This document shows positions 27,772-30,739 of a stretch of DNA of 64,000 bases, piece by piece. Under the pieces are notes generated by a model. The model had not been told where the DNA came from. It was given only the letters and a program-made list of their open reading frames with translations, and did not search any database. Source of the stretch: a virus; IMG/VR virus record IMGVR_UViG_3300029807_000001, positions 1 through 64,000 of that record; one strand, given 5' to 3'. Position 1 is the stretch's first letter; each line of letters begins with the position of its first letter. A program made the position numbers and the translations under genes.

Positions 27772-28343
27772 TGGCTAAAAAAGGTAAACTAAGCAACACG
27801 GATAAGATGGCTATCCAAAAGGGAGTGTCCAAGGGACTGACCGTAGACAGTATTGCTAACAGTCTAGATCGCACAACTAAGATAGTGGACAATTATATTA
27901 GCGGAGAGTTGAATGACCTACTGTCTACTATAGCTGGTGCTCAGATAGATAAGGACGAGGCACAAACTCCTGCCTCTTATGATGAGTCTGATCTAAGTAA
28001 AAAGTATGACCACATAGACCCGCGTACTATAATACACGTAACTAATAAGCTTATTACGGCGGGACTTACCGAGAATGATACTAGACAGCTTATAATCTCT
28101 GCTCTAGACAGTTCTAATGGCGATCCCAGTATGAATAACGACGAATTGTTATACACTAGATGTATATCTCGTATGAGTGCTGGCCACTTTATCACTAAGA
28201 AAACTCAGGGTGGTAGGGAAGGTGTGGCGATCATGTCTGAGGCTGCGTCTATCAGAGGAGATATGCACGCAAAGAAAAGCTTGGGTAACTCGCGTTCCTC
28301 ACGAGGTAACGTGTTTAATCCGAAAACTGGAGAGTACATGTAA
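27771..28343 (+). CDS. hypothetical protein with an N-terminal HTH-like segment
   Basis: GLTVDSIANSLDRTTKIVDNYI. Confidence 0.6.
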   Translation: MAKKGKLSNTDKMAIQKGVSKGLTVDSIANSLDRTTKIVDNYISGELNDLLSTIAGAQIDKDEAQTPASYDESDLSKKYDHIDPRTIIHVTNKLITAGLTENDTRQLIISALDSSNGDPSMNNDELLYTRCISRMSAGHFITKKTQGGREGVAIMSEAASIRGDMHAKKSLGNSRSSRGNVFNPKTGEYM

Positions 28344-28546
28344 TGTCGCAGCAGCCTTGCTACGAATATAAAGATACTCCAGAGTTCACAATAAATACAC
28401 TTCTGGATAGTGGCAAATATCCACTTATGTATCACTATCAAGTAGACGGGAAGCCTTATACTTGTGCAGATATAGCCATACGAAGGTGGGATACTATGCA
28501 GAGAAAGGAACGGGAGAGACTCTATGGGAAACGTATCGACTCCTAG
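28343..28546 (+). CDS. ERLYGK-array mini-protein 1 (67 aa)
   Basis: Ends RRWDTMQRKERERLYGKRIDS. Confidence 0.75.
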   Translation: MSQQPCYEYKDTPEFTINTLLDSGKYPLMYHYQVDGKPYTCADIAIRRWDTMQRKERERLYGKRIDS

Positions 28547-28733
28547 CGTGAGTCAGTCATGGGCTCCTATTGCGAATCAGTATGACTGGATAGATCATTC
28601 ATTCTCTACTAGAGAGCGTGAAGAAATATCTGCCGCACTTAATAAACGTTTGAAACGATGGGACCGTCGAGAGAAGAAAGAACAGGAGAGACTCTATGGC
28701 ATCAAACCTATGGACTCCTATACCGTTAGTTAA
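28524..28733 (+). CDS. ERLYGK-array mini-protein 2 (69 aa)
   Basis: KRWDRREKKEQERLYGIK. Starts inside repeat 1. Confidence 0.75.
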   Translation: MGNVSTPSVSQSWAPIANQYDWIDHSFSTREREEISAALNKRLKRWDRREKKEQERLYGIKPMDSYTVS

Positions 28734-28992
28734 TAATGCACCAGACGGAAAAGGTAACGGCCTTTCTAAGCTGGGTAATCAAGGTCCGTATGTTCAATAC
28801 GCGAAGTTTCCCGTTCCCGTCGAGCTAGAATCTTTTATGACTAAGGTGCATATTCCAACATACGATATAAGTGATAATTTCAAATTTGTGCCACTCAAGA
28901 AAAATATGCTAACATCTGTTTCGTTTACTATGCGGCAGAATCGTAGAGAAGAAAAGGAACGGGAGCGTCTTTATGGCAAACGCGACACGTAA
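28696..28992 (+). CDS. ERLYGK-array mini-protein 3 (98 aa)
   Basis: Ends REEKERERLYGKRDT. Confidence 0.75.
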   Translation: MASNLWTPIPLVNNAPDGKGNGLSKLGNQGPYVQYAKFPVPVELESFMTKVHIPTYDISDNFKFVPLKKNMLTSVSFTMRQNRREEKERERLYGKRDT

Positions 28993-29167
28993 TATTACAA
29001 TGGACGATCACACTCAAATTGTGCGGTCTAAAGTAACTCTAAAAGACGACGGGAATCTACCCCGTAATGATGCTGAGTGGGATAAGATATTCGACGATAT
29101 GAACAGAAGTACTCGTAGGTACTACAAGAATCGGGAGCGTCTATATGGCAAACGCTACACTAAATGA
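28973..29167 (+). CDS. ERLYGK-array mini-protein 4 (64 aa)
   Basis: MANATR...YYKNRERLYGKRYTK. Confidence 0.75.
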   Translation: MANATRNITMDDHTQIVRSKVTLKDDGNLPRNDAEWDKIFDDMNRSTRRYYKNRERLYGKRYTK

Positions 29168-29348
29168 TCTTATATGGGGACCAAAGATAATCCCTATGCC
29201 TTTAGTACATACTGCCATAACCTTACCAGAACATGAAGCTCGTGTTAATCTTAGCATCTGGCTCGATAAGATAATGAACACTCGTAATAGTTACTATAGA
29301 AGAAGAAGTCAAAAAGAACTGGAGCGTCTGTATGGCAAACGCATCTAA
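29145..29348 (+). CDS. ERLYGK-array mini-protein 5 (67 aa)
   Basis: MANATL...RRRSQKELERLYGKRI. Confidence 0.75.
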   Translation: MANATLNDLIWGPKIIPMPLVHTAITLPEHEARVNLSIWLDKIMNTRNSYYRRRSQKELERLYGKRI

Positions 29349-29487
29349 TATACCAATTGCTGTATATGGACATGTTACCAATACGGGTCATCTTATTCGT
29401 ATGGTGAAGGTAGATGTGCATAAAAACTGTAGGGTAACAGCACGTAGAATAAAAAGAGAACAGGATAGACTTTATGGCAAACAGTAA
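29332..29487 (+). CDS. ERLYGK-array mini-protein 6 (51 aa, not in the ORF track)
   Basis: Hand translation MANASNIPIAVYGHVTNTGHLIRMVKVDVHKNCRVTARRIKREQDRLYGKQ*. Confidence 0.7.
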   Translation: MANASNIPIAVYGHVTNTGHLIRMVKVDVHKNCRVTARRIKREQDRLYGKQ

Positions 29488-29638
29488 TAAGCCACCAACC
29501 AAATCTGAAAATGCGAGGCGTGCCAAGCAACTTGCGCGTCAGTTGGAGAGAGCAAAGAATAGAGACCCTGTGAAGGCAATGAAACGTAATTCACGTATGC
29601 TGATGAAAGAATGGGAGCGTCTGCATGGTAAACCATAG
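29474..29638 (+). CDS. ERLYGK-array mini-protein 7 (54 aa, not in the ORF track)
   Basis: Hand translation MANSNKPPTKSENARRAKQLARQLERAKNRDPVKAMKRNSRMLMKEWERLHGKP*. Confidence 0.7.
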   Translation: MANSNKPPTKSENARRAKQLARQLERAKNRDPVKAMKRNSRMLMKEWERLHGKP

Positions 29639-29810
29639 AGACTTTCCATTAAGTATTTCCGCTAAGGCGAGAAGTTTACGGCTGCACACATCTATTATGC
29701 GTAGATGGAGATTAAAGAGAAAAGATGCTGAAAGACTATATGGTAAGGGTACTGCTCCAGTATTGAGTAAGCCTTTTGCTTTACGACTATCGAGGTATGT
29801 AAACCCATGA
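29625..29810 (+). CDS. ERLYGK-array mini-protein 8 (61 aa, internal motif)
   Basis: MRRWRLKRKDAERLYGKG followed by a further tail. Confidence 0.7.
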   Translation: MVNHRDFPLSISAKARSLRLHTSIMRRWRLKRKDAERLYGKGTAPVLSKPFALRLSRYVNP

Positions 29811-29986
29811 TAACAGCAACAGATATACGTGTGAAACGTCAGTCAGCCATGATGCGACGGTGGCGCATAAAGAGAAAGAACGCGGAAAGACTATACGGTA
29901 AAGGCTCAATTCCTAATCCTCGTAGAATCTTTGGTGGACGATTGAACATGGTTCGCACTATAAAGGACATATTCGGAAAATGTTAA
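29807..29986 (+). CDS. ERLYGK-array mini-protein 9 (59 aa, not in the ORF track)
   Basis: ATGA overlap with gene 8 and a GAGGT RBS. MITATDIRVKRQSAMMRRWRIKRKNAERLYGKGSIPNPRRIFGGRLNMVRTIKDIFGKC*. Confidence 0.7.
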   Translation: MITATDIRVKRQSAMMRRWRIKRKNAERLYGKGSIPNPRRIFGGRLNMVRTIKDIFGKC

Positions 29987-30120
29987 ACAACAATAGTGCG
30001 TTGAGGTCTGCTATGTATGCGTTAAGACAGTCTTACCAAATAGTAGACAAGGCTACGAAAGCAAGGGAACGTAGAGAAAGAAAAGAACGGGAGAGACTTT
30101 ATGGTAAGCAAGGCACATAA
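29980..30120 (+). CDS. ERLYGK-array mini-protein 10 (46 aa, not in the ORF track)
   Basis: MLNNNSALRSAMYALRQSYQIVDKATKARERRERKERERLYGKQGT*. Confidence 0.65.
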   Translation: MLNNNSALRSAMYALRQSYQIVDKATKARERRERKERERLYGKQGT

Positions 30121-30271
30121 CGATGCTTTTGACGCATTGATTCTTGCTGCGGCTAGAACGAAAGATTCTTGGGAATGTGTGACGAAAGCTATAAAGGTAA
30201 TGAAGCGTGGCTTTGTAAAACTGGAACGTAAACGAATAAAGAATCAGGAGCGTCTGTATGGCAAACGTTAG
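30101..30271 (+). CDS. ERLYGK-array mini-protein 11 (56 aa, not in the ORF track)
   Basis: MVSKAHNDAFDALILAAARTKDSWECVTKAIKVMKRGFVKLERKRIKNQERLYGKR*. Confidence 0.7.
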   Translation: MVSKAHNDAFDALILAAARTKDSWECVTKAIKVMKRGFVKLERKRIKNQERLYGKR

Positions 30272-30407
30272 ATGGAATCCAGAACAATTCAAAGCGATTG
30301 ATAAATACATGAAATCGTGTGTACGCAATTATGAAATACGTAAAATGGTTGATATACGTACAAAGAAGAAAGAAAGGGAGCGTCTGTATGGCAAACGTAA
30401 CAGTTAG
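30258..30407 (+). CDS. ERLYGK-array mini-protein 12 (49 aa, not in the ORF track)
   Basis: MANVRWNPEQFKAIDKYMKSCVRNYEIRKMVDIRTKKKERERLYGKRNS*. Confidence 0.7.
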   Translation: MANVRWNPEQFKAIDKYMKSCVRNYEIRKMVDIRTKKKERERLYGKRNS

Positions 30408-30570
30408 AATAGGTTCTACAATACCACATCCACAATCCGTACTTGGACTAGCTCAGCTTCCAGCACTAATAAGGTCCAAGAAAGACTTCGAAGTACTAAG
30501 AAGACATCAAATACAAATATGGCGTAAGCATTGGAGAGAGAAGGAGCGGGTGTATGGCAAAAGGAATTGA
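30388..30570 (+). CDS. ERLYGK-array mini-protein 13 (60 aa; start corrected from 30319)
   Basis: MANVTVRIG...QIWRKHWREKERVYGKRN*. The ATG lies in repeat 12 with a GGAG SD. Confidence 0.7.
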   Translation: MANVTVRIGSTIPHPQSVLGLAQLPALIRSKKDFEVLRRHQIQIWRKHWREKERVYGKRN

Positions 30571-30739
30571 TGTACATTACAGCAACTGGAGCGTAGATGG
30601 CAAGTTGTATAAAAACGTTAACACCAAGATATATGCTCCATACGGACTAGATATGGTTCCTTACCTAAGTATGAGCCTTAAACAAATAAGAAAATGTAAG
30701 ACAAATTGGGAGCGTTTATATGGCAAAGGAAGTAACTGA
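30554..30739 (+). CDS. ERLYGK-array mini-protein 14 (61 aa)
   Basis: Ends KCKTNWERLYGKGSN. Confidence 0.75.
   Translation: MAKGIDVHYSNWSVDGKLYKNVNTKIYAPYGLDMVPYLSMSLKQIRKCKTNWERLYGKGSN

Follow-up and report, generated by a model that had tools for sequence, protein, structure and literature searches.

The IMG/VR record IMGVR_UViG_3300029807_000001 is a virus contig of 93.7 kb with an estimated completeness of about 62%, and the window analyzed here comprises its positions 1 to 64,000. A row of 14 mini-genes was identified on the plus strand at positions 28343–30739 of the window. All of them are ATG-started open reading frames (ORFs) of 46–98 amino acids (aa), they tile the region without gaps (Table 1), and their products have a short peptide motif, E-R-L-Y-G-K, in common. 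At most junctions of the row, the DNA encoding this motif also holds the start of the following gene. Six of the 14 mini-genes are shorter than 60 aa. For mini-gene 13, the ATG at 30388 was used, and an upstream GTG was not taken as the start.

ATG-started ORFs of at least 45 aa covered 100% of the array, compared with a mean of 10% and a maximum of 35% in 500 dinucleotide shuffles, and the highest number of ORFs in any shuffle of the array region was 6. Under a codon model derived from 26 long genes of the window, the annotated frame had the top score for 14/14 mini-genes, with a total margin of 153 nats. The GC content of the array was that of its flanks, and the same mini-proteins were called on two contigs from different sources (JGI, Logan, ENA). 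The tiling, the codon model, the base composition and the recovery on two contigs indicate that the mini-ORFs are genes and neither noise nor an assembly artefact. An earlier reading of the same DNA, made from the letters alone and called the sequence-only reading below, had described 14 consecutive overlapping ORFs of 46–98 aa, six of them below the cut-off, and the tiling, the shuffles and the codon model bear this description out.

The array sits in a long plus-strand block that also encodes a class II-like ribonucleotide reductase, PhoH, a UvsX-like recombinase, a DnaB-like helicase, a primase and a DnaE-type polymerase. This position is in the replication module, away from the structural genes. 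The carrier of the array is an uncultured large phage with a DnaE-type polymerase, and the array is part of its replication/recombination operon. Nothing close to this phage was found among GenBank phages, and megablast of the locus was also without a match. Promoter-like sites were as frequent as expected (18 in 8 kb vs. 17.0 expected) and none was located at a junction, terminator-like sites were not enriched (7 vs. 5.7 expected), and no RNA structure was detected at the six junctions that were folded, with z-scores from −0.9 to +0.9.

The junction between consecutive mini-genes

The consensus R-x3-K-[EDN]-x-E-R-L-Y-G-K was found at or near the C-terminus of 14/14 mini-proteins, with the one-residue variants D-R-L-Y-G-K, E-R-L-H-G-K, E-R-V-Y-G-K and E-R-L-Y-G-I. 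A degenerate DNA pattern for the motif had 13 matches in the 64 kb, all within the array, where 0.12 were expected, and there was no match elsewhere in the 93.7-kb record. Frame 0 of the junction encodes x-Glu-Arg-Leu-Tyr-Gly-Lys, and the +1 frame provides GGAG, a spacer of 7 nucleotides (nt) and ATG-GCA-AAC. The ATG within the Tyr-Gly codons starts the following gene at 12 of the 14 junctions, always 7 nt past a GGAG (GGAT once), and the following gene begins 14–38 nt ahead of the stop codon of the previous one. The last junction is the start of the conserved downstream gene p164. The sequence GGAG-N7-ATGGCNAA occurred 7 times in the window, only in the array, and one of these occurrences was the start of p164. 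Mini-genes 9 and 10 start via plain ATGA-type overlaps, and the start of mini-gene 9 is a stop/start overlap with mini-gene 8 and not a junction ATG.

The six core codons of the motif had a synonymous divergence (pS) of 0.68 and a nonsynonymous divergence (pN) of 0.084, while the 8 codons upstream had a pS of 0.66 and a pN of 0.46. Variation in the spacer was confined to synonymous sites of Arg, encoded by AGA, CGT or CGG, and of Leu, encoded by five different codons, and the second codon positions were invariant in 14/14 copies. GGAG and ATG were the most invariant bases of the junction, and the His-for-Tyr variant also preserves the start ATG. The residue preceding Glu varied (R, Q, L, W, K), with a codon ending in G at every used junction; the two unused junctions had GCT or GCG, followed by GAA. 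Copies 8 and 9 retained the peptide though GGAG was lost in both, the ATG was also lost in copy 9 and the start function was gone. Further conserved columns were located upstream, with Arg at −7 in 13/14 copies, Lys or Arg at −3 in 13/14 and Glu, Asp or Asn at −2 in 14/14. The 30 nt upstream of each junction were 60–87% purine, compared with 54.5% for the window.

As judged from these codons, the peptide and the start signal are each under selection in their own right. The sequence-only reading had proposed that one element is at once a conserved peptide, a ribosome-binding site with start codon and a short DNA repeat, and the 12 used junctions together with the pN/pS values agree with it. As a DNA repeat, the element has a core of 18 nt with about 80% identity. 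Junctions 3 and 4 were 79% identical over 53 nt, and three junctions had 21–22 identical bases in common. Because the synonymous sites of the core were as saturated as those of the flanks, the repeats suggest no recent gene conversion or exchange. A programmed frameshift joining the row into one polyprotein was also considered and dropped, as a GGAG-N7-ATG of its own for each gene makes it unnecessary.

Table 1. Coordinates of the mini-genes, the bordering core genes and the slot gene of related loci
Feature	Length	Position	Strand	Motif codons	Remarks
p190, upstream core gene	190 aa	27771..28343	+		left border of slot; weak helix-turn-helix (HTH)-like N-terminus
Mini-gene 1	67 aa	28343..28546	+	28514–28531
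Mini-gene 2	69 aa	28524..28733	+	28686–28703	variant ending in G-I; ATG in junction 1, 7 nt past GGAG
Mini-gene 3	98 aa	28696..28992	+	28963–28980	longest
Mini-gene 4	64 aa	28973..29167	+	29135–29152
Mini-gene 5	67 aa	29145..29348	+	29322–29339	sole cassette with homolog outside this genome
Mini-gene 6	51 aa	29332..29487	+	29464–29481	Asp variant; GGAT replaces GGAG
Mini-gene 7	54 aa	29474..29638	+	29615–29632	His-for-Tyr variant; CAT codon preserves ATG of mini-gene 8
Mini-gene 8	61 aa	29625..29810	+	29730–29747	motif internal; no GGAG; local ATG opens 8 codons only
Mini-gene 9	59 aa	29807..29986	+	29885–29902	motif internal; Tyr is TAC, so no ATG; no GGAG
Mini-gene 10	46 aa	29980..30120	+	30091–30108
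Mini-gene 11	56 aa	30101..30271	+	30248–30265
Mini-gene 12	49 aa	30258..30407	+	30378–30395
Mini-gene 13	60 aa	30388..30570	+	30544–30561	length from junction-12 ATG; Val variant
Mini-gene 14	61 aa	30554..30739	+	30710–30727	its junction starts p164
p164, downstream core gene	164 aa	30720..31214	+		right border of slot; motif-free; start codon inside last junction repeat
UvsX/RecA-like recombinase		31180..32256	+		phrog_97, E 3e-28; homologs up to 68% identity
Slot gene of related loci	~140 aa	L010:9084-9524, L019:517-945, L022:860-1276, L026:154-594

Protein features, family members and the slot in related phages

The tail, about one third of each mini-protein, had a net charge of +3 to +12, and the bodies ahead of it were near neutral. 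The isoelectric point was at least 9.2 in 13/14 mini-proteins, the larger proteins of the phage being mostly acidic or neutral. AlphaFold2, run with an alignment of the paralogs, predicted a helix for residues 41–61 of the product of mini-gene 1, which correspond to the tail, at a predicted local distance difference test (pLDDT) score of about 80–92, and the remainder was of low confidence. The product of mini-gene 12 was predicted as a single helix of residues 8–44 with a mean pLDDT of 88. Since the predicted helix stops at Tyr, Gly-Lys looks like a helix cap in these models. Three ideas on the tail were dropped: a uniformly amphipathic helix, as amphipathicity was significant in only about 5/14 tails; a tail like that of ribosomal protein bS21, which had no Pfam support; and the N-terminal 'Y-G' helix of HNH proteins, which is no more than a resemblance.

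The bodies were mostly unalignable, with a mean z of 0.2 over 91 pairs and a z above 3 in 3 pairs only, namely 1–10, 10–11 and 8–9. The last pair had a z of 4.2, and mini-genes 8 and 9 are paralogs. The N-termini have only M-A-N in common, which is forced by the overlap. The bodies had earlier been called unrelated; this stands in so far as most of them cannot be aligned, but three pairs do align, and old, diverged tandem duplicates explain the picture equally well.

In an exhaustive HMMER profile search covering 1.84 billion representative proteins, the 14 proteins of the window and a single foreign one, P0135, were recovered. This 70-aa protein (E 7e-4) shares the tail, its gene lies on a 693-nt ENA contig, and its identity with cassette 5 was 38% over 64 residues including the body. 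As P0135 is a full-length homolog of cassette 5, at least one cassette is a maintained gene in a second genome. Word-indexed protein searches also returned only the window's own proteins and P0135. Peptide-pattern scans of IMG/VR, JGI metagenomes and GTDB genomes were negative, and tblastn of cassette 10 and P0135 against GenBank phages gave no match. An exact-junction DNA scan of IMG/VR had one match, in an RNA phage, which was judged to be chance, and a wider DNA pattern gave 27 single matches and no arrays in IMG/VR.

Similar peptides were seen at a few other places in IMG/VR. An unrelated AT-rich phage contig carries a single 85-aa gene ending in K-E-Y-E-R-L-Y-G-K-V (L063:8465-8722); the gene is not part of an array, and its tail contains no clear start of a following gene. 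Its product was the only other small protein found with such an ending, and this ending is probably due to chance. On two further contigs (L041 and L057), K-E-L-E-R-L-Y-G-K-G-C-F-F comes after a basic stretch at the start of ORFs, so that the motif is N-terminal and the proteins are larger.

No described protein family was matched. A PHROGs scan of 10/14 mini-proteins had no match with E <0.03, and a Pfam scan of a slightly different set of ten gave nothing near threshold. PDB sequences contained no significant profile match, and the ESM Atlas nothing above noise. The RTP of B. subtilis, found in the PDB profile search with E 1.4, was similar at the level of the motif only and was rejected. 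The peptide string E-R-L-Y-G-K was not found in a literature search. By these searches, the E-R-L-Y-G-K proteins are a new family without a described relative, and the earlier statement that no described protein family matches was upheld by Pfam, PHROGs, PDB and the exhaustive profile search.

Relatives were found by UvsX homologs and by alignment, and 26 related loci were compared, the closest UvsX homologs (66–68% identity) standing outside this set. A single UvsX query had no match in IMG/VR, nor did a UvsX alignment have one against genome contigs. The order p73–p163–p190–[slot]–p164–UvsX–131 aa–p167 was conserved in the relatives, the UvsX proteins of which were 56–66% identical. p190 was kept at the same position with 35–48% identity in every relative reaching that far, and its sole Pfam match, HTH_38, was sub-threshold. 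p164 was kept directly upstream of UvsX with 35–57% identity; the p164 genes of the relatives start with their own ATG-GCx or ATG-CCx, and no motif-bearing gene lies ahead of them. The slot was empty (9–10 nt) in three lineages (L013/L024, L015/L023 and L018) and contained a single unrelated gene (about 140 aa) in four others (L010-12/20/21, L019, L022 and L026). This gene forms a conserved family with an F-I-[IL]-V-P-N-[KP]-like stretch near the C-terminus and had no PHROG match and no significant Pfam match. The E-R-L-Y-G-K motif was absent from all of these related loci and from three whole relative records. Because the slot of the relatives is empty or holds one unrelated gene, and never the motif, the array is, by comparison of these loci, a lineage-specific filling of a variable slot between the core genes p190 and p164. 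The gene orders of the relatives also support the earlier claim that the block interrupts an otherwise ordinary run of core genes, shortly before the RecA/UvsX-like gene.

Three further features of the neighborhood were recorded. A gene for a 131-aa HNH/DUF559-like endonuclease (32243-32638, plus strand) lies directly after UvsX, usually overlapping it, and this pairing was found in every relative down to 34% UvsX identity. Since the pairing is so stable, the gene looks more like a conserved recombinase partner than a mobile homing endonuclease. p73, an ORF of 70 aa (27075-27287, plus strand), was conserved at 34–42% identity in the relatives and overlaps, in a different frame, the last ~175 nt of a 155-aa ORF (26782-27249, plus strand); the long overlap may be real, or else the 155-aa ORF upstream is shorter than listed. 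The DnaE-type polymerase is split, with 39263-41170 (plus strand) corresponding to positions 42–611 of phrog_405 and 42806-44509 (plus strand) to positions 623–1064, and other genes lie between the two parts.

Comparison with known systems and competing explanations

The closest layout was found in phage T4. In the T4 record AF158101, e.5, e.4 and e.3 have a common tail of the F-V-x-E/D-x-R type, and the ATGs of e.4 and e.3 are located inside the tail of the previous gene, a few bases past AAGGA. As in the array, the codons of a common C-terminal tail thus hold a Shine-Dalgarno sequence and the next ATG, and the T4 block, which includes e.2 and lies downstream of e.6, likewise consists of uncharacterised genes (e.2–e.5). 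However, the sequences are unrelated, the mini-proteins having no PHROG match, and both the motif and the spacing differ. The T4 block has three or four genes only, of 100–200 aa, some of which are annotated as predicted membrane proteins. The array had been presented in the sequence-only reading as no described system; this holds for the protein family, but the layout itself is also present in T4 e.5, e.4 and e.3. As far as we found, this layout is not described in the literature, and the array is a new variant of it.

Short repeats also border small ORFan genes in the hyperplastic regions of T4-type phages, where promoter-early stem-loop (PeSL) cassettes are found and repeats mediate modular shuffling (Arbiol et al. 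2010, PMC2839356; Comeau et al. 2014, PMC4122927). Like the array, PeSL cassettes occupy a variable region between conserved core genes. PeSLs are non-coding, consist of a sigma-70-type promoter and a terminator hairpin, and serve expression and recombination, whereas the repeat of the array is coding and carries a Shine-Dalgarno sequence and a start codon, and neither promoter-like sites nor, at the six that were folded, a stem-loop was found at the junctions.

The internal proteins of T4 are diverse small basic proteins that have only a short capsid targeting sequence (CTS) in common (Rao and Black 2010, PMC3012670). They resemble the mini-proteins in carrying a short conserved peptide on diverse small basic proteins, some of them act in counter-defence, and they are the best documented phage example of one constant tag on variable payloads. 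Unlike the conserved peptide of the array, which is C-terminal, the T4 CTS is N-terminal, is cleaved by the prohead protease and is not a gene junction. The array also differs in its position within a replication module.

A large phage genome with a tandem expansion of one small gene has been reported (2017, PMC5646251). The array would have the tandem duplication of one small gene in a large phage genome in common with this case, but the copies reported there are very similar, whereas only the tail is common to the members of the array, and no dual-coding junction was described. Ordinary translational coupling in polycistronic operons likewise places the start signal of one gene within the last codons of the gene before it. 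What sets the array apart is the 12-fold use of a single junction, whose encoded peptide is in addition conserved in its own right.

In the explanation that we favor, the array encodes 14 small, basic and largely helical accessory proteins of one lineage-specific tandem family, with coupled translation, an origin by duplication and a common partner of the tail. The row would be read from one transcript, and ribosomes finishing one gene would load onto the next. One transcript with coupling is the simplest reading because promoter-like and terminator-like sites were not enriched and the junctions were without RNA structure. The 14 proteins and p164 would then be made together with the early or middle replication genes. 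Growth of the row may have proceeded by tandem duplication of a unit that always carried an intact junction, the last junction being the presumed native 5' end of p164, and the N-terminal parts would then have diverged quickly. As relatives do without the array, its proteins are probably dispensable accessory proteins, which may act in host takeover or counter-defence. All members may bind the same partner through their shared charged helix, nucleic acid or a different polyanionic or acidic surface being the likeliest candidate, and the role of each member at this partner would depend on its variable N-terminal part. We put the probability of this package as a whole at roughly 0.6, and nearly all of the doubt lies in the steps on origin and function.

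Several points weigh against it. Translation and coupling are what we infer from the DNA sequence. The AlphaFold2 models depend on the alignment of paralogs and on short helices, a class that is readily over-predicted, and the low number of significantly amphipathic tails makes the kind of tail partner a guess. Moreover, 88/91 body pairs were at noise level and neighboring junctions were hardly more alike than distant ones (identity 0.45 vs. 0.42), so that common descent of the bodies is not demonstrable and an assembly from unrelated pieces is possible. Pfam, PHROGs, PDB and the ESM Atlas gave nothing on function.

A different view of the same locus, which builds on the expandable library of small effectors (anti-defence, host-takeover or packaged proteins) inferred in the sequence-only reading, is a modular cassette library, in which the junction is a recombination linker for gain, loss or swapping of genes and the tail is a docking or targeting tag, for the capsid or a hub, on diverse effector heads. 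A crossover from junction to junction would leave all remaining genes whole, as a tail and a start are both contained in every junction. The three junctions with 21–22 identical bases, the mostly unalignable bodies and the slot that differs among relatives (empty, one gene or 14 genes) are consistent with such a library, and the T4 internal proteins (PMC3012670) and PeSL shuffling in T4-type hyperplastic regions (PMC2839356) are precedents. However, the repeat is short, with an 18-nt core of about 80% identity, the pS values of core and flank (0.68 vs. 0.66) do not point to recent exchange, and the array is located within the replication module and not near structural genes; we consider a cassette library unlikely, though not negligible. 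A related and equally tentative proposal is that the junction is a 'plug' for exchangeable small effectors, with the E-R-L-Y-G-K helix delivering the heads to one hub, either a nucleic-acid machine of host or phage or the capsid interior. If this were true, cassettes gained, lost or swapped at the junction would be translated in the chain at once, and, taken with the T4 e.5–e.3 block, this would amount to a general and as yet unnamed mode of organising fast-evolving accessory genes in large phages.

The remaining explanations have much lower standing than the tandem family. Selection might act only on an RNA signal, consisting of the purine-rich leader, GGAG, the spacer, the ATG and the first codons, with the tail as its by-product. 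A purine content of 60–87% fits a leader without structure and at the same time gives rise to codons for Lys, Arg and Glu, and GGAG and ATG are the most invariant bases. The spacer, however, is free as far as the start signal is concerned, yet it had only synonymous changes of Arg and Leu with invariant second positions in 14/14 copies. Copies 8 and 9 retained the peptide after loss of GGAG (and of the ATG in copy 9), and the conserved residues reach −7, well upstream of the Shine-Dalgarno sequence, which makes a mere by-product quite improbable. Tandem short-peptide genes that combine a constant part with a hypervariable one are typical of precursor families of ribosomally synthesized and post-translationally modified peptides (RiPPs). 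The array might accordingly encode RiPP-like precursors, with the N-terminal part as the core and the C-terminal part as a 'follower' recognition sequence, and sizes of 46–98 aa would fit. No recognisable modifying enzyme, protease or exporter was present among the flanking genes scanned (26782-33123), where the only family matches were UvsX-like and HNH/DUF559-like, the scan being confined to the flanks. The proteins are strongly basic and predicted to be helical over most of their length, the putative cores are not rich in Cys, Ser or Thr, and the array belongs to a lytic-type phage's replication operon, so that RiPP precursors are very improbable here. Least probable of all is that the ORFs are not genes and arose by chance or by misassembly of a repeat region. 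Most of them are indeed very short and 13/14 were without homologs found, which is a weak argument, but tiling, codon usage and the pN/pS pattern all indicate coding, repeats of only about 20 nt are too short to mislead an assembler, identical proteins were present on two contigs of different sources, and a diverged homolog of cassette 5 exists elsewhere.

Small ORFan genes account for a large share of what is unexplained in the genomes of large phages, and the array is a clean example of how they can be organised. The array is long, and the selection on both of its readings is unusually clear; its layout is not unique and, together with the T4 block, may deserve description as a class. For annotation, the array is a warning, as six of its genes are below the usual 60-aa cut-off. 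If the shared helix is a docking or targeting signal, the 14 proteins would be approachable via one handle, the partner of the tail. Since a single short sequence is under selection for its peptide and for starting the following gene, the duplication or removal of a whole gene can leave expression intact.

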